From a virus (taxonomy: Duplodnaviria; Heunggongvirae; Uroviricota; Caudoviricetes), in the IMG/VR virus record IMGVR_UViG_3300029705_006930: DNA of 64,000 bases; one strand, given 5' to 3'. Positions 46,218-64,000 of this stretch are shown piece by piece. The translations under genes were made by a program, and so were the position numbers. Under the pieces are notes generated by a model. The model saw only the letters and a program-made list of their open reading frames with translations, was not told where the DNA came from and searched no databases. Each line of letters begins with the position of its first letter. Positions within the stretch are counted from its first letter, which is position 1.

Positions 46218-47234
46218 TTGAATGATTATCTGCAAGCACGTCCGGACGACGTACTTAAAGTCCTTAATTCATTGGGATTACCTAATTTGTCACATAACAG
46301 AGGACGAAATGAAATCAGATATTCATCAAGAGTAGGTAGCAATCCTACCTCAAATATTTTTTATTTAGATACACTTAGGTATTACAGCTTTTCAATGGGT
46401 GAAAGTGGAAATCTTTACACATTGGTGATGAACAATCAGAATTGTAATTTCCCGCAAGCCTTAGAATATGTGGCGCAAGTAGTTGGACTTTCCAAAAATG
46501 AATTCAATACTGAAATCAAATTACCATTTGGTGGCTTCTATAAAAAACTCATAAAACAACAGCGCGAACCTGAGTTGGACATACCTACATATCCTGATTC
46601 GCTCCTTGAGGAATACAACGGGCAGCTAAGTCTACAATTTTTTAATGATGGCATCAATTTCCAAACACAAGAAAAATATCATATTGGGGTTGATTTTTCT
46701 GCAATGCGCATAGCAATTCCACAATGGACAATTAATGGTCAGTTATGCGGAATTATGGGCAGAGCAATGGGAAAAGATGTACCGCATGAAGAACGTTGGC
46801 TACCTATTATTCCGTGCACGAAAAGCTACACATTATTTGGCTATCATCAAAACTATCATAAAATTCAAGAAAAAAATATGTGCATTGTATTTGAAAGTGA
46901 AAAAGCTGTATGTCAGCTTGATAGTTTTGGTTGTTATATTGGACTTGCAACAGGGGGATGTCATATTTCTTCAACACAAGCCAAATATTTGCGTGCATTA
47001 AGAGTTGAAAAAATTATTATTGCTTATGATGAGGGCCTTGATGAAGAACATATTATTGCCCAGGCACAAAGACTTCGCAGTAATGAAAATCAGCTTGTTA
47101 GAGGAGCGAAGATAGGATATATCTGGGACGATAATAATACATATTTGCCACTTGGCAGCAAAATGAATGCAGCTGATGTTGGTAAAGAAAAATTTATAAA
47201 ATTAATCAAAGAAAAAGTGAGGTGGCTCGAATAG
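46218..47234 (+). CDS. DNA primase (TOPRIM domain), TTG start
   Basis: IVFESEKAV ... IIAYDEGLD TOPRIM acidic motifs. No in-frame ATG near the 5' end. Confidence 0.55.
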   Translation: MNDYLQARPDDVLKVLNSLGLPNLSHNRGRNEIRYSSRVGSNPTSNIFYLDTLRYYSFSMGESGNLYTLVMNNQNCNFPQALEYVAQVVGLSKNEFNTEIKLPFGGFYKKLIKQQREPELDIPTYPDSLLEEYNGQLSLQFFNDGINFQTQEKYHIGVDFSAMRIAIPQWTINGQLCGIMGRAMGKDVPHEERWLPIIPCTKSYTLFGYHQNYHKIQEKNMCIVFESEKAVCQLDSFGCYIGLATGGCHISSTQAKYLRALRVEKIIIAYDEGLDEEHIIAQAQRLRSNENQLVRGAKIGYIWDDNNTYLPLGSKMNAADVGKEKFIKLIKEKVRWLE

Positions 47235-48325
47235 CTGTAAGAGAAAAAGATATAACACTTGAAGAATTACAAAAACAAGGTAAAAAATTATATTCAATTT
47301 CAAAAGCAGACACAATTGACCAGTGTCATTATCAGGCATATCTTGCATACATCGTACACAGTAAATCGGTTCCTAATATTTATTCATTAATGGGTTCTAA
47401 AATTCATGACACTTTAGAAGGCATTATGAATCAGAAAAATACAACGGAAGATTTGATTGTAGCTCTAGATAATGAGCTTGAAGATATGCAAATGCTTGGA
47501 TTTGATTTTCCTCGCGATAGCAGAGGAAAAACATCTATCCGTGATAATTGGATAAAAAATATGCGTCATTTCTGTAGCAATTTTATACCGCCACGAGGCG
47601 AGTTTGAAACTGAACAGTTATTTATATATCCACTCACAAAAGACAGATATGTACGAGGTTATATTGACCTTGTTCAGCATCTGGATAAAGATACAAAAAC
47701 AATTTCAATTTGGGACTGGAAAACTTCCTCACAATTTTCTCAGGAAACATTATTGGAACACGGCAGACAGCTTGTTATATATGCCATTGCAAAAGAAGCA
47801 GAAGGCTATACCGTCAAAGACGTAGGCTGGATAATGCTTAAATATGTTGAAATTGTTTTTCAAGGCAAATTGCGCAGAAATTCTAAAGAAAAAACTAAGA
47901 TTACCAAAGTTTGTGACCGTTATAAGATAGTACAAACATTGCAGCCATATTTAGAGCAAGAGCTGATAGAAGCTGGCTATGATGATATAGATATTGAAAT
48001 GTTTATGATAGATGCACTGGAAAATAATTCATTGGATAAGCTTCCAAATGAAATTCGTTCCAAATTTATCATTAAACCATATGTAAGGCGCTATCCGATA
48101 ACCGAAAAGCTCAAACAGGAAACCTTAGATTACATAAATCATCAGGCTGATATTTTTGAGTCATTGCCTAAAAATGATAAATCAGCCTGGAAGCCTAAAG
48201 TGATTGATAAAGGCAATGAATTTTTCTGCAATTATCTTTGTGATTATAAGTCTTCTTGCGAATATATTGCCAGATATAATCTTGAAAAACAGTTGGCAAA
48301 AACTTCAGATGAAGAATTATTTTAG
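47222..48325 (+). CDS. PD-(D/E)XK nuclease, Cas4/RecB-like with C-terminal Cys cluster
   Basis: YIDLVQ...IWDWKTSS (D..E/D.K) and CNYLCDYKSSCEY. Confidence 0.6.
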   Translation: MARIAVREKDITLEELQKQGKKLYSISKADTIDQCHYQAYLAYIVHSKSVPNIYSLMGSKIHDTLEGIMNQKNTTEDLIVALDNELEDMQMLGFDFPRDSRGKTSIRDNWIKNMRHFCSNFIPPRGEFETEQLFIYPLTKDRYVRGYIDLVQHLDKDTKTISIWDWKTSSQFSQETLLEHGRQLVIYAIAKEAEGYTVKDVGWIMLKYVEIVFQGKLRRNSKEKTKITKVCDRYKIVQTLQPYLEQELIEAGYDDIDIEMFMIDALENNSLDKLPNEIRSKFIIKPYVRRYPITEKLKQETLDYINHQADIFESLPKNDKSAWKPKVIDKGNEFFCNYLCDYKSSCEYIARYNLEKQLAKTSDEELF

Positions 48326-48333
48326 GAGGAAAT

Positions 48334-49029
48334 ATGCAGAATTATCATTGCCATACCAGTTATAGTAATTTGTTTTCATTTGACTCTATTGCATCTTATG
48401 AAGATTATGCAAAACGAGCTCAGGAACTTGGGCACAAAGTTATTTCATCTGTCGAACACGGCTGGCAATGTAATTATTATGTACCATATGGCATAGCTCA
48501 AAAATATGGATTGAAATTTGTTTTTGGTACAGAAGCATATTGGGTAAAAGACAGGATAGAAAAAGATAATAAGAATAACCATATTATTATTCTTGCAAAA
48601 AATGAAAACGGCAGACAAGCCATAAATGATATTTTAGCAGAAGCTAATATTACAGGTTACTATTATAAACCACGTTTGGATACAAAACTGATTCTGTCTT
48701 TACCCGCCAATGATGTCTTTATTACAACAGCATGTGTTGGATTTTATGGATATGGTTTTGAAGAAAGTGAAAAATTTATTGTTCAGTTGCATAAGCACTT
48801 TAAAAATAATTTTATGCTTGAAATTCAAAATCATAATACTGACAAGCAAAGAGAATTAAATAACCAAATTAAAAAGTGGTCAAAAAAATACAATATTGAA
48901 ATGATTGTTGGGTTAGATAGTCATTATATATATCCAGAGGATGCTGGTCTTCGTGATGAAGCTCTTAAATCAAAAGGCATTATTTATGAAGATGAATCTG
49001 GTTGGTATTCTAAATGCCGTTTAATTTAG
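48334..49029 (+). CDS. DnaE/PolC-type polymerase PHP-domain fragment
   Basis: YHCHTSYSNLFSFDSIAS PHP signature; RBS AGGAGG. Confidence 0.65.
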   Translation: MQNYHCHTSYSNLFSFDSIASYEDYAKRAQELGHKVISSVEHGWQCNYYVPYGIAQKYGLKFVFGTEAYWVKDRIEKDNKNNHIIILAKNENGRQAINDILAEANITGYYYKPRLDTKLILSLPANDVFITTACVGFYGYGFEESEKFIVQLHKHFKNNFMLEIQNHNTDKQRELNNQIKKWSKKYNIEMIVGLDSHYIYPEDAGLRDEALKSKGIIYEDESGWYSKCRLI

Positions 49030-49277
49030 TAATAAATTAAATAATTACTGGGGAAAATCGGTGAAGTCCTCCAATGATATAGGATAATACCGAGGTAAAC
49101 AATAAAATTGCGTAAGGTTTATTGTCACCGTAGAGCATAGATAGTGAATAAATATAATCTATCCAAGAGTCTCCAGCATCCCACCTAAATATAGAGGATG
49201 AAAATATATGCCGAGCTTACATAATGGAAAAATGTAAGAACTATGGGGTAAAAAACCTATAGGATAACAAAACTGAT
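49030..49277 (+). other. About 250 nt structured spacer splitting the DnaE-like gene (candidate ORF-less group I intron)
   Basis: Hairpins ACAATAAAattgcgtaaggTTTATTGT and CATCCcacctaaatatagaGGATG. No RBS-less continuation checked. Confidence 0.3.
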
Positions 49278-51809
49278 ATGGACTATCCCTCTGACAATGA
49301 ATGCATAAAGCGTTTTTTAGACCAAGGAATTTTTACTGAGACAGAAATTCAACGTGCAATGGATAACACAGATATCTGCTTAACATTTGAGAATTTTTAT
49401 TTTAGTAAAGATATTAAACTACCAACTTTATATCCAGACAAGACTCAAGAGGAAAAGAACAAGATATATTCAAGACTGATTACAAAAAAGTTTAAAGAAT
49501 ATATGAAATATGTTCCTGCTGAAGACTATGACAGATATTATCAAGGTGTTAAAGAAGAAGTTCAGGTATATAAAGATACTGGTATGGTTGACTATCCGCT
49601 AATCAACTATGAAGTTATTAAGCGCGGGATTGAATTGGGCGGGGTAATTACAGATAGTGGACGTGGTTCCGCTGTTGGCTTCTTCACAAACACATTGTGT
49701 GGATTCTCAAAAGTTGACCGTTTTACATCTGCAATTCATCTTTATCCAGAGCGCTTTATGTCAACAAGCCGAATATTAGAGTCCGGCTCCCTACCAGATA
49801 TTGACTTTAACGTAGCTAATACTGAGCCTTTTGAACGAGCACAAAAAGAAATACTTGGAGAAGAACATTCATATCCAATGATTGCATTTGGCACTTTGAA
49901 AAAGAAATCTGCTTTTAAGCTTTATGCAAGAGCAAAAGATGTGCCAGCTGCCATTGCAAATGAAATCACAAAACAGATTGAAAAATATGAAAATGATTTA
50001 AAACATGCCGATGATGATGACAGGCGCGATATAAATATCTATGACTATGTAGATGAACAGTATCATGACCATTTGAGACAGAGTGAATCATATTGGGGTA
50101 TCATTTCTGACCGCAAAAAAGCTCCATCGGCACATCTCTTATATCAAGGCAATATTCGTAAAGAAATTGGGCTCATTAAATGTAAGAGTGAAAGTACCAA
50201 GAAGGAATGCATCACTTGTGTTATTGATGGTGCAGTCGCAGAAGAATATAAATTTTTGAAAAATGACCTGCTCACTGTAAATGTGGTGGATATTATTGAC
50301 CGTGTTTTTAAACGTATTGGCATTGAGCATTTTAATGTAAATACATTGTTGGGACTTATTAAAAATGATAAACCGACTTGGGATATTTATGCTAAAGGTT
50401 TGACTATAGGTGTTAACCAATGTGAAAAAGCCTCAACAACAAAAAAAGCAATGCGATATAAACCACGAAACCCATCTGAGCTCTCGGCATTTATAGCAGG
50501 TATTCGTCCAGGCTTTAAATCAATGTATCCGATTTTTGAAAGTAGACAGCCGTTCTCATATGGAGTTGCTACACTGGATAATCTGCTGATTACCGAAGAA
50601 CTTCCGATTCCCTTTATGATTTTCCAGGAACAGACAATGAAAGTCCTTAACTATGCTGGATTTCCAATGGACGAATGCTATGGTCTTATTAAAGCTATCA
50701 GTAAAAAGAAACCAGAAAAGGTAAAAGCAATCAAAGATGATTTTATTAAAAATTTCTGCAAACAAATTCAAGAAGATAATGGACTTGATTTTGAAATTGC
50801 ACAAAATAACAGTGAAAAAGTATGGACAGTAGTAAATGATAACTCAGGTTATGCATTTAACAGTTCTCATGCATACTGTATGGCGTTGGATAGCTTATAT
50901 TGTGCTTATCTCAAATCTCACTATCCTTATGAATTTTATGAGGTACTTCTCACATTTTATTCCAACAAAGGCAACAAAGATAAAGTTGCTGAACTGAAAA
51001 GAGAAATGCTCCAAGGTTTTGGTATCAGAGAAGGCAAGTTTAAGTTTGGCAATGATAATCGCAGCTTTAAAGCCGACAAAGAAAACGGTGTTATATATTC
51101 ATCACTATTATCATTAAAAAATATGAACCAGAAATGTTCTGAGGACTTATATGCTTTATCACAAAAAAAACAATATACAAACTTTTTTACACTGCTCAAA
51201 GATATTAAACAACTTAAGAGTCTGAAATCTGACCAGCTTAATATTTTGATTAATATTGGATATTTTGATGATTTTGGTACAGTCCCACAGATTCAGACAT
51301 TTGTAAAAGCATATGACGACCTTTATGGACGAGCTCAATTTTCCAAAGATAATCTGGATGCTAATTATGCAGCACTTATTGCTGCTGACAGTACGCAGAC
51401 TGAAAAACAATATCGCAACTTTGATTATGAAAATGCATTGCATAAATTGTGGATGCAAATTCCGCCAATTAAATTAGGTTTGCATCAGAAAATTAAAAAC
51501 GAACTTGAATATTTTGGATACATACAAACAATCATACCAAAGCTCTCAGATGAATATGTAGTCGTAACTGATAAGATTGACAAATATTCGAAACTGACGG
51601 TCACGGTTTATGTATTACAGACTGGAGCAATTCATACTTATCGAATGCGAAGCAGAGTTGCAGAGCAATGCGGAACAATTAATGTGGGCGATATTATTAA
51701 ACTGATGAAGTTTAGCGAAGAAAAGAAATGGACAAAAAATGTCAACGGAGATTGGGTACACACAGATGAAACCGAAACACTCATTAAAAAATATGCACTG
51801 ACAAGATGA
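49278..51809 (+). CDS. DNA polymerase III alpha (DnaE-type) catalytic core
   Basis: Palm motif GRGSAVGFF; 843 aa, which with the 231 aa PHP ORF gives about 1074 aa. Confidence 0.7.
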   Translation: MDYPSDNECIKRFLDQGIFTETEIQRAMDNTDICLTFENFYFSKDIKLPTLYPDKTQEEKNKIYSRLITKKFKEYMKYVPAEDYDRYYQGVKEEVQVYKDTGMVDYPLINYEVIKRGIELGGVITDSGRGSAVGFFTNTLCGFSKVDRFTSAIHLYPERFMSTSRILESGSLPDIDFNVANTEPFERAQKEILGEEHSYPMIAFGTLKKKSAFKLYARAKDVPAAIANEITKQIEKYENDLKHADDDDRRDINIYDYVDEQYHDHLRQSESYWGIISDRKKAPSAHLLYQGNIRKEIGLIKCKSESTKKECITCVIDGAVAEEYKFLKNDLLTVNVVDIIDRVFKRIGIEHFNVNTLLGLIKNDKPTWDIYAKGLTIGVNQCEKASTTKKAMRYKPRNPSELSAFIAGIRPGFKSMYPIFESRQPFSYGVATLDNLLITEELPIPFMIFQEQTMKVLNYAGFPMDECYGLIKAISKKKPEKVKAIKDDFIKNFCKQIQEDNGLDFEIAQNNSEKVWTVVNDNSGYAFNSSHAYCMALDSLYCAYLKSHYPYEFYEVLLTFYSNKGNKDKVAELKREMLQGFGIREGKFKFGNDNRSFKADKENGVIYSSLLSLKNMNQKCSEDLYALSQKKQYTNFFTLLKDIKQLKSLKSDQLNILINIGYFDDFGTVPQIQTFVKAYDDLYGRAQFSKDNLDANYAALIAADSTQTEKQYRNFDYENALHKLWMQIPPIKLGLHQKIKNELEYFGYIQTIIPKLSDEYVVVTDKIDKYSKLTVTVYVLQTGAIHTYRMRSRVAEQCGTINVGDIIKLMKFSEEKKWTKNVNGDWVHTDETETLIKKYALTR

Positions 51810-54479: not shown

Positions 54480-55373
54480 ATGAAGAAAAACGGTTTTGTT
54501 GGTGGTGTTCTTGCCGCAGCAATTATTGTAATTGCGCTTTTAGGGATAATCACTTGTATTGAAAAAATTCCAACAGGGTACGTTGGCGTTGTATATAAAA
54601 TGTCCGGTGGTGTGCAGGACGAAATTCTCACACAGGGCTGGCATATTGTTTCTCCAACCAAAAAGGTTAAGGAATTTACTGTTGGTAATGAGCAGATTGT
54701 TATGACAAAAGACGAACGCGATGGCAGCAAAGGTGATGACAGCTTTGCTGTAGCTACAGCAGATAATGCAAATATTGATATTAGTTTTCAGATGTTATAC
54801 AGATATGATGCTCAAACAGTTGTGAATACATTTAAAGATTATAAAGGCATGAGCGGTGAAGATATTGTTAATAACCGAGTGCGTACATTACTTAAATCTA
54901 AAATTTCCGAAGTTACAACCGATTACACAATGATGGATATTTACTCTGGTGACAGAACGACAATCAATCAGGAAATCACAGAACATCTCAATGAAGAATT
55001 CCATCGTCAGTTTGGTATCAATGTTTTGGATGCTTCTATTGTTGATGTACATCCAAGCGAACAACTGCAGGACACAATTAACAAACGTGTAGATGCAATC
55101 CAGAAAAAACAGGAGGCAGAAGCAAATCAGGAACGTATTAAAGTAGAAAAAGAAACAGAACTTATTCAGGCAGAAGCAGATGCAAAAATTGCCGAAGCAA
55201 AAGCACAGGCAGAAGCACGAGTAATCGAAATTGAAGCACAGGCAGAAGCCGAAGCAAATCGTCTTATTGCACAGAGTATTACCCCAGAACTTATCGCTAT
55301 GAAAGAAGCCGAAGCTCGTCTTGTTCACGGCTGGGTGGAAATCACAGGCTCAGAAGCCGTAGTAGTTAAATAA
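54480..55373 (+). CDS. SPFH/band-7 (prohibitin/HflC-like) membrane protein
   Basis: N-terminal TM helix, SPFH core, A/E/Q-rich coiled-coil tail. Confidence 0.7.
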   Translation: MKKNGFVGGVLAAAIIVIALLGIITCIEKIPTGYVGVVYKMSGGVQDEILTQGWHIVSPTKKVKEFTVGNEQIVMTKDERDGSKGDDSFAVATADNANIDISFQMLYRYDAQTVVNTFKDYKGMSGEDIVNNRVRTLLKSKISEVTTDYTMMDIYSGDRTTINQEITEHLNEEFHRQFGINVLDASIVDVHPSEQLQDTINKRVDAIQKKQEAEANQERIKVEKETELIQAEADAKIAEAKAQAEARVIEIEAQAEAEANRLIAQSITPELIAMKEAEARLVHGWVEITGSEAVVVK

Positions 55374-55426
55374 TAAATTGAATAACAATCTCCGCAGGGG
55401 AAACTCTGTGGAGAACAAGGATAACT

Positions 55427-56749
55427 ATGAGACAAATATTAAATATGAGAGAAACATTAACGCGAGTAAGTTTTTTATTTAAGACTATTGCGAGTACACC
55501 AAGGACAACTGAAAAGAAACGATTGTTGCGTTATATCAACAGCTCAGAACCAGAGAATGTATGTGAAATGTTTCTGTATACTTTACGATTTTTATTGGAT
55601 AACAATGTAACAACAGGTATCGATAAAAAGAAACTCAAAGCTCAAATTAATATGCCTGATATTAATTTTCCAATGAAATGGTCACATATGTTGGAATATA
55701 TCAAAGAAAACAATACAGGAAGGCATGAAGATATTCGCAGAGCACAGCTCTTTATCGAAGATAATCCCGAGAATGCGGAATTTATTGCTGATATTATAAC
55801 AAAATCATATAGGTTAGGACTGACAGCCAAAACAGTAAATGAAGTTTATGAAGATTTTATTCCTGTTTGGTCAGTACAGCAGGCATATCCTTTGGAAAAA
55901 TATCCGCTTAAGGACGGAGAATGGTTTTCTTTATCACAAAAGCTTAATGGGTTCCATGCCTCATATTACAAGGGTAAATTAATAAGCCGACAAGGAAAAG
56001 AAATCAAAGGTTGTAAGCACGTTATTAACGCAATAAACAACTTTAAACTTCAAGATTTCTTTATTGATGGCGAGCTTATCCGGCGTAATGATATTGAACC
56101 TCATCTCTCAGACGAAGAAAATTTTCGACAGACTGTTTCAATTGCGAATTCTGATTCTGACGACAAAACAGACCTGTGTTTTATTTATTATGATATCATT
56201 CCAGCTGATGATTTTGACAAAGGCAAATGTGAAATAACATATCGCCAACGTCTTAATGACATGCATAAATTAAACAGTATAATTCTGCAGACTCCATTTT
56301 ATAAAACGTTTCATATGGTGAAATGGTTTTATCACGGCAATGACCAAAAGAAAATTCAGTTTTGGCTTGATTATGCAAATGAAAATGATATGGAGGGTCT
56401 TATGTTAAATAAGGATACTGTATATCAATGCAAACGTAATTCAGGCATTTTAAAGGTAAAAAGTTGGAAACATTGTGACCTTAGAGTAACGGGCGTTGAA
56501 GAAGGCGATGGCAAATACAAAGGAACCCTTGGAAAACTGATTGTGGACTATAAAGGAAATACTTTGGGATTAAGTGGAATGAGCGATGAGGAACGTTATA
56601 TATTTTGGAATAATCCACAGGACATAGTTGGGAAGATTGTGCTCGTTAAATATAAACAGGAAACAAAAGACAAAACAGGTAAACGTAGTTTGCAGTTCGC
56701 AACCTACCAAGGTGTTAGAACTGATAAAGATGAAGTCAGCTACAATTAA
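55427..56749 (+). CDS. ATP-dependent DNA ligase
   Basis: KLNGFHA (I), FIDGELI (III), EGLMLNK (IV), ILKVKSW (V). Confidence 0.65.
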   Translation: MRQILNMRETLTRVSFLFKTIASTPRTTEKKRLLRYINSSEPENVCEMFLYTLRFLLDNNVTTGIDKKKLKAQINMPDINFPMKWSHMLEYIKENNTGRHEDIRRAQLFIEDNPENAEFIADIITKSYRLGLTAKTVNEVYEDFIPVWSVQQAYPLEKYPLKDGEWFSLSQKLNGFHASYYKGKLISRQGKEIKGCKHVINAINNFKLQDFFIDGELIRRNDIEPHLSDEENFRQTVSIANSDSDDKTDLCFIYYDIIPADDFDKGKCEITYRQRLNDMHKLNSIILQTPFYKTFHMVKWFYHGNDQKKIQFWLDYANENDMEGLMLNKDTVYQCKRNSGILKVKSWKHCDLRVTGVEEGDGKYKGTLGKLIVDYKGNTLGLSGMSDEERYIFWNNPQDIVGKIVLVKYKQETKDKTGKRSLQFATYQGVRTDKDEVSYN

Positions 56750-56765
56750 TAGATGGGGGAATAAA

Positions 56766-58065
56766 ATGAACGTAAAAGATTGGCTTGGAGAAGAAAATCA
56801 GCTCGGCATTGATATTGCTACAAAAAAATATATTAAAAACGAATCCTTTGATGAATTTATCGGAAGAATTTCAAATAATAATCCAGAAATTAAAAGAATT
56901 ATTTTAGAAAAGAAATATCTGCATGGTGGCAGAACACTCAGTAACTACAATACGGGTAATGGTGCATCCACATCCAACTGTTATTCAAGTGGTTACTGCC
57001 CGGATGATACAGCAGGTATTCTGGAGCTAAATAAAAATATAGGTCTTACATATAAAGCACAGGGTGGGCAGGGTTTATCTCTGAGTAAAATCCGTCCAAA
57101 GGGCTGTAAAATCAGCAAAGGTGGATATGAAACTGATGGCATCATTCCATTTATGCAGATGTTTGATACTACAACAGCAAGTATTTCACAGGGCGGTTCA
57201 AGAAAAGGAGCTCTGATGATGTCTCTTGACTGCTGGCATAAAGAGGTTAAAGATTTTATCACAATCAAAACCGATACAAATCTTATTACAAAAGCAAATC
57301 TGTCAGTTGAAATTGACGATGAATTTATGACCTGTGTCAGAAAATATTATGATGAAGGCTTGGTATTTGAAAAACAAGTAAACTTTACTTATGATGGCGG
57401 TGAAACCAGATATATGGTGAAACCTATTGAAGTATATCAGCTGATTTGTAAAACGGCTCATGAATATGCTGAGCCAGGCATTATCTATACTGAGCAGTTT
57501 CGCAACTATAATTTAATGCAGTACGATGATGAATATCAGATTGTAACTGGTAACCCATGTGGAGAACAGCCTTTGCCACAGAATGGGGCGTGCAATCTGG
57601 GCAGTATTAACCTTGCAGAATTTGTAAAACACCCATATTCATCAGAATCAGAGTTTGATTTTGTAGATTTCCGCAATACAGTAGAAATTGCAATCAGAGC
57701 ATTGGATGACGTACTGGATTATGGTGCTGAACTTCATGCTTTGCCAGAACAGAGAGAAATGGCAAAGAATTATCGCAATATAGGTCTTGGCATTATGGGC
57801 CTTGCTTCAATGCTTTTTAAGATGGGCATTAAATATGGCAGTGATGAATCTCTCCATCTTGTAGATACCATTGGCTATACAATGTTTAGAACTGCTTTGG
57901 AGACATCTACTGAGCTCGCAAAAGAAAAAGGAACTTTCCCAAAATATAAAGATGTTGTTTTTGATGCAGAAATTATTAAGGCACATTTTAATGCAGACGA
58001 AATCGCAGAGCTCCGCAAATATGGTCTTCGCAACTGCTCATTGCTTTCAATCGCTCCAAGTGGGT
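56766..58065 (+). CDS. nrdJ: Class II (NrdJ-like) ribonucleotide reductase, exon 1
   Basis: NPCGEQPL...ACNLGSINL catalytic motif; RBS GGGGGA. Exon ends ..SIAPSG + t. Confidence 0.75.
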
Positions 58066-59266
58066 TGACTAACTGGCTCACATAAAACATTTTTAATTGC
58101 TGGAACATCCTTAGAGCTTCATAAACTACAACATAATGATGAAATATACATAAGTGTGAATGTTTGAAAATTATGAAGATTGGATAATCAGCAGCGAAGC
58201 TCTGAATAGGAGAACGTTCAACGACTATCCCTTAATGGGAGTACACTGCAAGTGATTGGCAGTGGAAATAAAATGTACTAATTATTTATAAACTTAGGTA
58301 AAAGTAATAATAGAATTAAAAAATATAACATATGACGACATATATAATTTATATATAACACAACAAAAATCACAGCGACAAGTAGCAAACATACTTCACA
58401 TTGGGCAAACATCGGTTAGAAGGTTGTTACAAAAATATAATATTCCATCTAGGACTTCAGAAGAAAGCAAACAAACTCCAGATTTCATTGCTCGTCAAGC
58501 AGAACTTGCTCATAGATATCAAAATGAGTATAGAAAAATAATTGTCAAACAGTGTAAATGGTGTGGAAAAGATTTCGAAGTAGATGGTGAACATAAAAGA
58601 AAAAAATATTGCTCCCCAGAATGTGTTTCTATGTCTCAAAAATCTAAAACCAAAACACAATTTTGCCAGCGTTGTGGTAAAGAAATAAAAATATCATCTG
58701 GAAGACATTATAAAAGAATCTATTGTGATGAATGTAATGTTGTTGGCAGAAGTGAAAAGCAAATTAATAAGATACAAACTACTTGTGGATATTGTGATGC
58801 AAAAATCGAAGTAATTCCAAGTGTATATAAGGCAAATCGTTTTTGTTATTGCGATATGAATTGCATGGCTAAGCATTACGCAGAAATATATAGCGGGGAA
58901 AATAATCCCTCTTGGAAAGGTGGAAAATCACATCATTACACAGGTGGGTTTTATAATGCTCGGCAAAAGGCAAGAGAAAGAGATAAATATACTTGTCAAA
59001 TATGTGGAATTACGGAAACTGACTTTGGTCAACAAATGAGTGTGCACCATATCAAAAATTATAGATTATTTGAAGATAAGGCTGAAGCAAATAAACTTGA
59101 TAATTTAATATGTCTATGTGAACCTTGTCACCGATTTGTACATTCGAACAATAATAAAGAAGGATTGTTTATAAATAATTAGTAAAGATATAGTCTCAAC
59201 TTATATGAAAATATAAGCAGCCAGAAGATGGCGGCGATGGTGTAGCGAACCATCGCGAAGACATTG
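58066..59266 (+). mobile_element. Group I intron interrupting the RNR gene, carrying an HNH homing endonuclease ORF
   Basis: Exon 1 ends in U and the intron ends in G. Splicing restores SIAPSG-SIGTMLNVTTGCEP. In-frame stop just inside the intron. Confidence 0.65.
58424..59182 (+). CDS. HNH homing endonuclease (intron-encoded)
   Basis: Multiple CxxC zinc knuckles; HNH core VHHIKNY...NLICLCEPCHRFVH. Confidence 0.75.
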   Translation: MLQKYNIPSRTSEESKQTPDFIARQAELAHRYQNEYRKIIVKQCKWCGKDFEVDGEHKRKKYCSPECVSMSQKSKTKTQFCQRCGKEIKISSGRHYKRIYCDECNVVGRSEKQINKIQTTCGYCDAKIEVIPSVYKANRFCYCDMNCMAKHYAEIYSGENNPSWKGGKSHHYTGGFYNARQKARERDKYTCQICGITETDFGQQMSVHHIKNYRLFEDKAEANKLDNLICLCEPCHRFVHSNNNKEGLFINN

Positions 59267-60246
59267 CAATTGGCACAATGCTCAATGTGACAACAGGATG
59301 TGAACCTGCATTTAGATTGTCATATAAACGTAAAACAGAAAGCTTACATAAAGATAAAGAAGTTTATTACGATGTATTTCTTCCGGAAATAGAAGAATTT
59401 AAACGTCTTTACCCAAACAAAGAATTGCCAGAGTACTTTGTATCAAGTGAAAATATTTGCTGGGCAGACCGAGTAAAAATGCAGTCAGTATTGCAGGAAC
59501 ATATTGATACAGCTATTTCATCAACAGTAAATCTGCCAAATTCAGCAACAATTGAAGATGTTGAAGACCTGTATTTGTATGCTTGGGAACAAGGTCTTAA
59601 GGGTATTACAATCTACCGTGATGGCTGTGCAAGAACTGGTATTCTCACAACAGATAAAACTGGTAAAAAAGAATCACCTGAAACATCGGAAAAGATAATA
59701 TCAGCTGAATTGCCAAGAGGCTACATTATGGATGTAAGTGACGACCTTATTGGTTATAAACGTAAACTTAATACAGGTTGTGGTTCAATTCATATGGAAG
59801 TATATTTCGATGAAATATCTGGTGAACCACAAGAAACCTTTGTCAACATTGGCTCTAGCGGCGGCTGTGAACGTAATTATCAACTCATCTCACGCCTTAT
59901 ATCTCTTGCATTAAGAGGTGGTGTTCCAATTGAATCTATCATTGACCAAACAATGAGTATTCGCCCTTGCACAGCTTATATCAACAGAACAAAAGCAAAA
60001 GGGGATACTTCAAAGGGAACTTCTTGCCCGAGCGCCATAGGCTATGCTTTACAAGAATTACAAAAGAAAATTAATGATAGGTGTTTTGGTTGCGAAGAAG
60101 AAATTGCAGAATCAGAATGCAATTGTAATATAGAAGACAAAGCAAGAATAAGTACATATACACCTTGTCCAGAATGTTCATCCCAATTGCAATTTGAAGG
60201 TGGTTGTATTATCTGTAAAAATTGTGGGTGGTCAAAATGCGATTAA
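59267..60246 (+). CDS. nrdJ: Class II RNR, exon 2
   Basis: ..GTMLNVTTGCEPAF; C-terminal Cys-rich tail CPECS...CKNCGWSKCD. Total 759 aa in frame. Confidence 0.75.
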
Positions 60247-62419: not shown

Positions 62420-64000
62420 ATGAAAAGAGTTGCATGTTTATATCGTGTTTCAACAAAAGGACAAGTTGATAAAGATGACATTCCTATGCAGCGTAAAGAA
62501 TGCAGTGAATTTATTAAAAAACAGGGATGGCAATTAGTCAATGAATATTATGAAAAAGGTGTCAGTGGCTATAAAAAATCAGCAGACCAACGTGATGTAT
62601 TGCAAACAATCAAGAATGATGCTTTAAATAATCAGTTTGACATTCTGCTTGTCTATATGTTTGACAGATTAGGACGACGCGAAGATGAAACTCCATTTAT
62701 TCTTGAATGGTTTACAAAACAAGGTATAGAAATGTGGAGTGTTAAAGAAGGCCAACAGTCCTTTTCACAACATATTGATAAATTACTTAACTACATACGT
62801 TTCTGGCAAGCCAGCGGTGAAAGTCATAAGACTTCTATGCGTGTTGATAGTAGCCATAGGCAAATGGCTGAAGAAGGCAAATTTAGAGGCGGCGATGCAC
62901 CATATGGATATATGCTTGTAAAAACAGGTGTATTCAATAAAAAGAAAAAAGAATTATTAAAATTAGTCATCAATACCATTGAGGCCCCTATTGTGCAGCT
63001 TATATATAAGTTAGCTTTGGAGGGATATGGTCAAACAAAAATAGCCAAATATTTAAATGAGCACGGCATAAAAACTCGAAACAATAAAATGTGGAATAGT
63101 GGTACAATTGGTTATATCCTAAAAAATCCAATTTATAAAGGTTATCCTGCATATAGAAAGAAAACAGGACAAGGAGAGGGAGTTCATAATTTGCCAAGTT
63201 CAGAATGGATATTATCTTCGGCACAGCAAATTGAGCTTGTTATAATTTCAGAGAATGATTGGGATAGAGTGCAGGAATTACGTACACAACATCATAATTC
63301 TCCTAATCATAACACAATCACAAATTCACCATTATTATTAGTTGGGTTGACTTACTGTGGATGCTGTAAAAGTCCATTGACTACCACTTATTCATATAAG
63401 TACAATAAAGATAAAACAAAGGTATATCAGCGACCAAAATATCGTTGCTCTGGTAAGGCAAATGCAAAAGCACTCTGTGATGGACAAACCGTTTATAGCG
63501 CAGAGAAATATGAAAAAGCTGTTTTAAATCAGATTGATATTTATTTAAATAAAATCAAAAATACACCACAATCTCAACAAGATACAACAGCTAATGATTT
63601 TCAAAAAAATATTAAATCTCTCGAGCATAAATTAGCAAAAATCAATAATATGATAGAAATATTATCTGATGAAGTTGGTAATGCCTTGATAGGAGAAAGT
63701 CGATTTACACCAGAAGTTTTGGCAGAACAAATTAACAAAAAACAACAAGATAAAATTTTAATACAAAATGAACTTGACAAAATAAAACAAGAGGCAGATA
63801 ATTATAACCATGAACAAATCAATACACAGCAATTAAACCAAGTTATTCCAATCTGGAAAGAAAGGTTTGACGGATTTTCAACTGAAAAGAAAAAACGTTT
63901 ATTGCGTATCTTGATTTCACGCATTGAATTTAATAGAGATACAATTATTATAGATTTTAATACAACTATTCAATGCTTTTTAGATGCTATCACTGCATAA
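62420..64000 (+). CDS. Large serine recombinase (integrase)
   Basis: Resolvase N-terminal domain YRVSTKGQ...LLVYMFDRLGRR; recombinase and zinc-ribbon/coiled-coil C-terminal domains. TAA at the window end. Confidence 0.85.
   Translation: MKRVACLYRVSTKGQVDKDDIPMQRKECSEFIKKQGWQLVNEYYEKGVSGYKKSADQRDVLQTIKNDALNNQFDILLVYMFDRLGRREDETPFILEWFTKQGIEMWSVKEGQQSFSQHIDKLLNYIRFWQASGESHKTSMRVDSSHRQMAEEGKFRGGDAPYGYMLVKTGVFNKKKKELLKLVINTIEAPIVQLIYKLALEGYGQTKIAKYLNEHGIKTRNNKMWNSGTIGYILKNPIYKGYPAYRKKTGQGEGVHNLPSSEWILSSAQQIELVIISENDWDRVQELRTQHHNSPNHNTITNSPLLLVGLTYCGCCKSPLTTTYSYKYNKDKTKVYQRPKYRCSGKANAKALCDGQTVYSAEKYEKAVLNQIDIYLNKIKNTPQSQQDTTANDFQKNIKSLEHKLAKINNMIEILSDEVGNALIGESRFTPEVLAEQINKKQQDKILIQNELDKIKQEADNYNHEQINTQQLNQVIPIWKERFDGFSTEKKKRLLRILISRIEFNRDTIIIDFNTTIQCFLDAITA

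Follow-up and report, generated by a model that had tools for sequence, protein, structure and literature searches.

A 64,000-nucleotide (nt) stretch of viral DNA assigned to the Caudoviricetes (IMG/VR record IMGVR_UViG_3300029705_006930; hereafter, the window) carries the parts of a DnaE-type DNA polymerase on its plus strand, in two open reading frames (ORFs) between positions 48334 and 51809. ORF1 (48334 to 49029; 231 amino acids [aa]) matches the Pfam PHP domain (E = 1.7e-18) and ends with TAG, directly followed by TAA TAA. ORF2 (49278 to 51809; 843 aa) contains GRGSAVGF and matches DNA_pol3_alpha (E = 1.4e-21) and DNA_pol3_finger (E = 9.7e-16), with the helix-hairpin-helix (HhH) family HHH_6 matched only below threshold. 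It begins with ATG after a gap of 248 nt, in which there is no plus-strand ORF of 30 aa or more. An initial annotation, made from the letters of the DNA, had described the two ORFs and the gap and had left two explanations side by side, an ORF-less group I intron and a polymerase genuinely split into two subunits. Here, we report that the locus is very probably a single polymerase gene split by an ORF-less group I intron of 269 nt (49007 to 49275).

The uninterrupted gene and its junction

Homologues were sought among 5.8 billion proteins, and the 120 best matches were examined. All but one (119/120) are single proteins of 1040 to 1338 aa, at most 72% identical, and the only match without a PHP domain is the window's own ORF2. 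A contiguous G-W-[YF]-[ML]-D-Y-P is present in 117 of the 119 homologues. At the position of the ORF2 ATG, 113 of these 117 motif-bearing relatives have Met and the other 4 have Leu. When ORF2 was searched against GenBank phages with tblastn, homologue matches began at its residue 1; in Geobacillus virus E3, Bacillus phage Sophrita, and Lactococcus phage WRP3, the break point falls about 228 codons inside a single annotated coding sequence (CDS) of 1014 to 1053 aa, and the closest GenBank relative (MT835469) has one ORF of 1102 aa. Eleven relatives were fetched as loci (seven IMG/VR contigs included; identity, 55% or less), and in all 11 the PHP match ends on the nucleotide preceding the core match, in the same frame. 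Splits at this site were found in none of the 11 loci and none of the 119 homologues (130 relatives). When 12 kb of the window were compared with GenBank phages by megablast, there was no match and hence no annotated twin.

The protein alignment reads GWY, SKCRLI, and a stop, then MDYP, in the window, where relatives read GWY-MDYP or GF[IF]-[ML]DYP unbroken, and it confines the junction to 49006 to 49008. Because t, a, and t occur at both ends of the insert, three placements are compatible (49007 to 49275, 49008 to 49276, and 49009 to 49277), and the element was set at 49007 to 49275, the sole placement that leaves U as the last base of the 5′ exon and G as the last base of the insert. The intron would start 23 nt before the end of ORF1, so that it takes in two bases of the Tyr225 codon and the final six ORF1 codons (SKCRLI), and would end 2 nt ahead of the ORF2 ATG. 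It is accordingly somewhat longer than the element of about 250 nt originally described. Exons joined in silico from 49006 to 49276 read GGU UGG U/AU AUG GAC (G W Y M D) and encode 1068 aa, without stops or frameshifts in either exon and with PHP, palm, and finger motifs kept. Thermus, E. coli, and mycobacterial DnaE structures aligned with the joined protein across its whole length (2hpi, E = 2e-43).

Judged from these alignments, no residue is missing or added between the two ORFs, and the ORF2 ATG is an internal Met codon of the uninterrupted gene, not a start codon of its own as first proposed. An intron predicts exactly this; a complete DnaE alignment, which the initial annotation would have held against an intron, is thus not counter-evidence. 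Coordinates are collected in Table 1.

Table 1. Exons and predicted intron elements of the window polymerase gene (P, paired region; J, joining segment)
Feature	Position	Strand	Evidence
5′ exon (PHP; codons 1-224 and first base of the Tyr225 codon; ends with U49006)	48334..49006	+	Pfam PHP; relatives align through ...GWY
Predicted group I intron, 269 nt, no ORF	49007..49275	+	Insert missing from 11 relatives; at least 126 homologous copies; covariation-supported fold; model R1, 171 bits
P1 hairpin (49003-49009 with 49013-49019); wobble U49006.G49016; internal guide sequence (IGS) GCCG	49003..49019	+	7/7 pairs standard in the window
P2 hairpin (49020-49027 with 49034-49041); holds the ORF1 TAG (49027-49029)	49020..49041	+	8 standard pairs; all pairs change on both sides in the family; about 70% of cells paired
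P3 5′ strand (with 49171-49175), then J3/4 AAAA (49054-49057)	49049..49053	+	100% paired; 4/5 pairs change on both sides; RF00028 puts P3 here
P4 (49058-49062 with 49089-49093), J4/5 GAAG, P5 (49066-49070 with 49081-49085), J5/4 AAU	49058..49093	+	P4 100% paired, with compensatory changes; P5 69%
P6 (49094-49096 with 49127-49129), P6a (49099-49106 with 49118-49125)	49094..49129	+	97% of cells paired; 10/11 pairs change on both sides
P7 5′ strand: G49133, bulged A49134, G49135-A49139; pairs with 49207-49212	49133..49139	+	5 core pairs 100%; A-U/G-C and C-G/A-U exchanges
Peripheral hairpin at the P7.1 position (49140-49144 with 49159-49163), loop UGAAUAAAUAUAAU	49140..49163	+	Stem 100% paired; 4/5 pairs change on both sides; loop almost invariant
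Conserved joiner CAAGAGU, after the peripheral hairpin	49164..49170	+	
P3 3′ strand, closing the P3/P7 pseudoknot	49171..49175	+	
P8 hairpin (49177-49181 with 49196-49200), then J8/7 AAAAUA (49201-49206)	49177..49200	+	87% of cells paired; 5/5 pairs change on both sides
P7 3′ strand	49207..49212	+	
P9 (49216-49222 with 49232-49238), P9.1 (49241-49247 with 49256-49262)	49216..49262	+	98.6% and 99.4% paired; compensatory changes
3′ tail GAUAACAAAACUG, terminal G (omega G) 49275	49263..49275	+	GAUAAC nearly invariant
3′ exon (palm, thumb, fingers, HhH, C-terminal region)	49276..51809	+	Pfam and PDB DnaE matches

Fold of the probable intron

The fold was derived from 47 nonredundant copies of the RNA family to which the insert belongs (alignment A3). 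Pairs were counted on a MAFFT alignment not fitted to the structure, with controls in which the 3′ partners were slid by 1 to 3 columns and with 500 shuffles. The elements occur in the order P1, P2, P3, P4, P5, P6/P6a, P7, peripheral hairpin, P3′, P8, P7′, P9, P9.1, which is canonical for group I introns, whose P4-P6 scaffold and P3-P7-P8-P9 catalytic domain are linked by a P3/P7 pseudoknot (PMC3984707). Across the 47 copies, 89% of cells are paired, compared with 33 to 43% in the slid controls, the covariation score is 0.575 (0.08 to 0.13 in those controls), 59 of the 70 pairs change on both sides, and no shuffle (0/500) reached any observed measure. Pairing is complete in P3, P4, P7, and the post-P7 hairpin and lower (55 to 70%) in P1, P2, and P5, which are length variable or exon dependent and are poorly aligned by MAFFT. 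In the window copy, every assigned pair is standard. That the spacer is structured, as first described, thus stands on overwhelming comparative evidence; the single-sequence fold of the gap contributes modestly (minimum free energy, −65.4 kcal/mol; z = −2.4; 5/200 shuffles equally good).

The pair 49133-49212 spans a bulge (A in 25 copies, C in 22) and is formed in all 47 copies, as G-C (22), A-U (22), or C-G (3). Beside the bulge, G49135-C49211 is invariant (47/47). In classical group I introns, the guanosine-binding site is a conserved G-C pair beside a bulged nucleotide. That site lies in P7 (PMC3984707), and by architecture G49135-C49211 is the candidate here. The joining segments are almost invariant (J3/4, AAAA; J4/5, GAAG; J5/4, AAU; J6/7, GUAGA or GUAAC; J8/7, AAAAUR), and a subset of copies has an extra hairpin nested in the loop of the post-P7 hairpin. 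Of 86 columns with conservation of 90% or more among the other 46 copies, the window copy matches 84, which ranks it 28th of 47; its two deviations (49248 and 49255) form a reciprocal swap from A.G to G.A at the base of the P9.1 loop, seen in the window copy alone.

Two loops, UGAA..AAUAUAAU (49145 to 49158) and GAUAAAAAG of P9.1 (49248 to 49255), were also observed to be almost invariant across very different phages, and their conservation suggests tertiary contacts.

Distribution and host genes of the RNA family

Homologues of the intron (66 to 79% identity) were found by blastn in distant mode in 65 GenBank phage records, from clostridial, staphylococcal, streptococcal, Bacillus, crAss-like, and cyanobacterial phages, and a scan for a 24-nt core motif gave at least 119 IMG/VR stretches. 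Profile searches located 126 copies in the fetched loci, several of which hold two or three. Copies lie in, or between fragments of, tape-measure, major capsid, terminase, DNA polymerase, and other genes, and also beside distant DnaE homologues at other positions in the gene. ORFs for HNH, LAGLIDADG, or "intron-associated" endonucleases often adjoin them, and homology to the window intron then starts at differing helices. No second family copy was found in the window with blastn or with the family hidden Markov model. By this distribution, the family behaves as mobile introns and not as a polymerase-specific linker.

In the public records examined, the copies carry no intron annotation; they are overlapped by spurious "hypothetical protein" calls or are credited to neighboring endonuclease ORFs. 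The tape-measure gene of Clostridium phage phiCD211 (L005, 1501 to 2070) appears to hold two tandem group I introns, the first (1501 to 1779) an unannotated member of the DnaE-intron family that the Rfam group I model RF00028 misses, the second (1806 to 2070) of RF00028 type (41.7 bits) and labeled Intron_gpI by the depositors; the flanks are annotated as two CDSs, one called "minor tail protein" and the other "tape measure protein." Two to four copies per genome were seen in bajarodcaudo virus 1 (L006, 1455 to 3565) and at L020, L042, L083, and L102; in bajarodcaudo virus 1, several copies interleaved with "intron associated endonuclease" ORFs break up the major capsid gene.

Predicted splice sites and kinship to group I introns

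Typically, the exon upstream of a group I intron ends with a U that pairs with G in P1, and the intron itself ends with G (PMC3428280). In the window, U49006 lies opposite G49016 in P1, which is G in 42 of 44 copies, so that the 5′ splice site predicted from the RNA coincides with the protein-derived junction; U.G is the commonest state of this column (23 U.G and 7 C-G of 38). At the other end, the conserved tail GAUAACAAAAYUG finishes at G49275, the same position as the protein-based 3′ junction, and the terminal column is G in 34 of 47 copies (ungapped-tail MAFFT alignment).

Several observations weigh against a spliced group I intron at this site. RF00028 (gathering score, 50 bits) had no match to the insert at the gathering threshold in a search of the whole window, nor at E ≤ 10 in 901 nt, and scored 12.9 bits (E = 0.57), below the gathering score, on 286 nt alone. 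A strict per-copy test for P1 succeeded in 9 of 41 copies and in 3 of 41 control windows, which is too weak family-wide. Only A49276-U49015 and U49277-A49014 could form P10 by inspection, about 2 bp; alternate pairing of the same IGS bases with AUU at the start of the intron and AUA at the start of the 3′ exon would be consistent with P10, but 2 bp carry no weight as evidence. With the nearest polymerase relative only 72% identical, gain or loss of the intron at the site is not datable. The searched literature holds no member of the lineage with an experimental splicing assay, the case for splicing is in silico throughout, and the E-values of the family-built model described below are rough.

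A GAAAAUAUAA-like stretch is conserved 15 to 25 nt upstream of the IGS in many family copies (L101, L044, L106, L033, L104, L007, L123, and L011), where it replaces a recognizable P1 5′ strand. Either an additional element ahead of P2 or the conserved terminus of an endonuclease ORF may account for it; the 5′ splice sites of such copies would then lie well upstream, outside the range searched, and the weak outcome of the P1 test across the family would be explained.

The RF00028 negative is a limit of the model, as controls show: three tandem introns of phage Twort (L137, 16606 to 17506, which we take to be the orf142 introns) scored 64 to 101 bits, and the neighbor intron of phiCD211 reached its 41.7 bits while the adjoining family copy was ignored. 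Rfam searches of six homologous loci gave no usable match either. Rfam and GISSD models may miss phage introns (PMC11878797). Weak as it is, the RF00028 alignment of the window intron puts P3, J3/4, P4, P5, P6, J6/7-P7, P3′, P8, and J8/7 on the helices assigned by covariation and treats the 28-nt post-P7 hairpin as an insertion.

A covariance model of the family core only (R1, built from alignment A4; 166 positions, 36 bp) was run on 160 kb and returned two Twort introns at 27.8 bits (E = 1.8e-4) and 21.6 bits (E = 6e-3), with the next-best match at E = 3.6 (all E-values rough, from a shortened calibration); with filters off, the third Twort intron scored 13.8 bits. All three matches are full length and fall inside the RF00028 matches. 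At the level of sequence profiles, no relation to Twort (first 50 kb) or Pf-WMP3 was found with nhmmer. The register shared with RF00028 and the detection of Twort introns by R1 together argue that the family is kin to bona fide group I introns. The initial annotation's proposal of an ORF-less group I intron is supported by the junction mapping, the P3/P7 pseudoknot fold, the behavior of the family, and the cross-detection with Twort.

Proposed splicing pathway

We infer the splicing of the window copy, its chemistry, and its arrival by intron mobility from this comparative evidence. One pre-mRNA would be transcribed from the whole gene, and the intron would fold into P1 to P9.1, in which P4-P6 form the scaffold and P3-P7-P8-P9 the catalytic domain, closed by the P3/P7 pseudoknot. 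An exogenous guanosine bound at G49135-C49211 would attack the phosphodiester after U49006, which forms the U.G wobble with G49016; G49275 would then take the guanosine site, and the 3′-OH of U49006 would attack after G49275. Exon joining would yield the junction GGUUGGU/AUAUGGAC, restore GWYMDYP, and give one polymerase of 1068 aa, while unspliced RNA would give only the 231-aa PHP fragment ending in SKCRLI. Because it holds no endonuclease gene, the window intron would be unable to home alone. It may persist vertically, or it may spread when helped in trans or through recombination in coinfected cells.

Alternative readings

The initial annotation's other option, a two-subunit polymerase, is highly unlikely; it would mean that the intron-derived spacer is retained and that the PHP protein (231 aa) and the core (843 aa, from the ATG at 49278) assemble noncovalently. 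Both ORFs are intact, and AGGA lies 12 nt upstream of the ORF2 ATG, as such an arrangement would want, but this AGGA is within an intron-family motif (UAGGAUAACAAAA) that is kept whatever gene lies downstream and is partly paired in P9.1. No relative among the 130 is split at the site, and the ATG is the usual internal Met codon. The spacer has no plus-strand terminator and 10 promoter-like matches, where 10.6 are expected, and the ribozyme core is undecayed (84/86 conserved columns, helices intact). Nothing in the sequence indicates separate expression of ORF2.

Still less likely is a dead gene, with a decayed or splicing-incompetent intron and a polymerase pseudogene in a defective phage or prophage. 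A serine recombinase gene that begins at 62420 hints at an integrated, possibly decaying element, but the 1068 codons have no stops or frameshifts and keep their motifs, the intron keeps every helix with its two changes reciprocal, and the neighboring replication genes are intact.

We regard as least likely of all an insertion of another kind, whether a miniature inverted-repeat transposable element (MITE) or insertion sequence (IS), a group II intron, an intein, or a structured RNA other than an intron (a small RNA or riboswitch). No Rfam family could be assigned significantly, as would suit such an insertion, but the P3/P7 pseudoknot and bulged P7 are specific to group I, and the fold is in register with RF00028 and the Twort introns. 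For a MITE or IS, the window lacks a second copy, and a codon-precise insertion with U...G termini fits splicing, not transposition. An intein was rejected (in-frame TAG TAA TAA 20 nt into the insert; no plus-strand ORF), as were a group II intron (269 nt is too small for such six-domain RNAs, which span several hundred nt or more, have a catalytic domain V hairpin, and often carry a reverse transcriptase ORF; no Rfam group II match even at E ≤ 10; fold of group I type), stop-codon reassignment (TAG directly trailed by TAA TAA), and translational bypassing (the insert, at 269 nt, is much too long and folds as a group I intron).

Comparison with known systems

A group I intron in a phage polymerase gene is of a well-known kind. 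What is mildly new here is the class of the host gene, DnaE type and not family A, and a lineage that is large and yet missed by current models. Literature searches for the intron lineage or for an intron in a DnaE-type polymerase found nothing specific.

The Twort introns are reported to self-splice, and one has a crystal structure. Like the window intron, they are compact (about 220 to 290 nt), ORF-less, and located in a phage protein-coding gene, and the two groups share the order P3-P4-P5-P6-P7-(peripheral helices)-P3′-P8-P7′-P9, a P9 hairpin, and similar J8/7-P7′ strings (AUAUAGUCUGAAC compared with AUGUAUGCUGAAC). They differ in host gene, in RF00028 score (64 to 101 bits, compared with 12.9), and between P7 and P3′, where the R1 alignment gives inserts of 27 to 63 nt in Twort and a single hairpin with an invariant loop in the window family. 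Self-splicing Twort introns in ribonucleotide reductase (RNR) genes are cited in PMC3984707.

The self-splicing introns of phages SPO1, Bastille, and Pf-WMP3 likewise interrupt an essential replicative polymerase gene in a conserved coding motif; the last base of the 5′ exon is a U that pairs with G in P1, and the last base of the intron is G (PMC3984707, PMC11878797, PMC3428280). Their polymerases belong to family A (Pol I-like), whereas that of the window is of the family C DnaE type, and their introns carry ORFs for HNH or nicking endonucleases, which the DnaE intron lacks. The Pf-WMP3 intron, assigned to subgroup IA2 (P7.1-GUA-P7.2), is unrelated to the window family at the level of sequence profiles.

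The split DnaE of cyanobacteria consists of two far-apart genes whose products are joined by a split intein (protein trans-splicing). There, as in the window, DnaE in two pieces ends as one protein, but the pieces in the window are adjacent, the spacer is noncoding and contains stops, the position differs, and joining would take place at the RNA level.

Subgroup IA2 is defined by P7.1 and P7.2 linked by G-U-A between P7 and P3′ (PMC3428280). The window family departs from this, with one covarying hairpin (49140 to 49163; loop, UGAA...AAUAUAAU) and no tandem hairpins joined by GUA. By its sequence, we consider the DnaE intron IA-like, since a peripheral helix between P7 and P3′ is an IA trait. 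Hallmarks of the lineage are the P7.1-position hairpin with the UGAA...AAUAUAAU loop, the CAAGAGU joiner, the GAUAAAAAG loop of P9.1, and the GAUAACAAAA tail. More tentatively, and with somewhat more doubt than confidence, we suggest that the insert is a minimal, endonuclease-free member of a large, widespread phage group I lineage that lies outside IA2, is invisible to RF00028, and would form an uncatalogued subgroup.

Other interruptions of the polymerase and genome context

The intein splicing domain PF14890 is present in four close homologues (P0021, P0038, P0044, and P0047; 64 to 67% identity, 1210 to 1338 aa), so that the same polymerase family has been invaded by inteins as well as introns; the window gene carries no intein. 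DnaE homologue matches fall into two pieces about 1.1 kb apart in Lactococcus phages AM1, AM2, AM3, AM8, AM9, AM11, AM12, and LW81, in which two CDSs called "DNA polymerase III alpha" flank one or two "hypothetical protein" CDSs; in their sister phages WRP3, AM4, and AM5, DnaE is uninterrupted. The gap in these 949-like phages is probably another intron or an endonuclease insertion, at a different site of the same gene.

DnaE is part of a replication module in the window that includes an AAA_24 ATPase, a DnaB-like helicase, a primase-like protein, a PD-(D/E)XK nuclease, an ERCC4 nuclease, a ThyX-like protein, a ligase, and RNR. The primase-like ORF (weak CHC2 zinc-finger match) and the PD-(D/E)XK nuclease ORF (together 46218 to 48325) share 13 nt and lie immediately ahead of the polymerase; the order nuclease-polymerase-ERCC4 is common to the window and MT835469. 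Between ThyX and RNR, 54480 to 56749 encodes an SPFH/Band-7 protein and an ATP-dependent DNA ligase. A search for tRNA genes in the window found none.

The gene for the RNR large subunit is also split, into 56628 to 58085 (Pfam profile positions 9 to 390) and 59278 to 60246 (profile positions 396 to 523, plus TSCPD). The insert between them (about 58086 to 59277; boundaries approximate) carries an HNH ORF (58424 to 59182), its flanks match RF00028 (58089 to 58269, 33.2 bits, E = 2.5e-6; 59183 to 59215, 23.8 bits, E = 1.6e-3), and it includes a P7.1-GUA-P7.2-like stretch. These features mark it as a classical group I intron, of IA2 type, that encodes a homing endonuclease. Phage introns typically target DNA polymerases and RNRs (PMC3984707). 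The RNR intron and the second phiCD211 intron are both RF00028-recognized group I introns in typical targets, and their lineage differs from that of the DnaE intron (no meaningful nhmmer or R1 match); on the RNR intron, R1 returned only noise, as expected for a core split by an ORF of about 900 nt.

A large serine recombinase (Resolvase, Recombinase, and zinc ribbon) occupies 62420 to 64000 and is cut off by the end of the window; its presence suggests that the element is temperate or integrative. With the ORF2 cluster reaching a contig of 325,858 bp, this may be a phage of very large size or else a prophage within a bacterial contig.

Implications

The polymerase of the window should be annotated as one spliced DnaE of 1068 aa, not as a PHP protein and an N-terminally truncated polymerase. 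The pattern is a familiar one, selfish introns in conserved motifs of essential phage replication genes, and the window phage has at least two. RF00028 misses the whole lineage, which is common in gut, skin, and environmental phages, and genes split by it are misannotated; a covariance model such as one from alignments A3 and A4, or R1, would mend such annotation. If the lineage is indeed an uncatalogued subgroup, many "split" or "truncated" phage genes (polymerase, terminase, capsid, and tape measure) would really be intron interrupted. The 269-nt, ORF-less window copy is a conveniently small candidate ribozyme for biochemistry.

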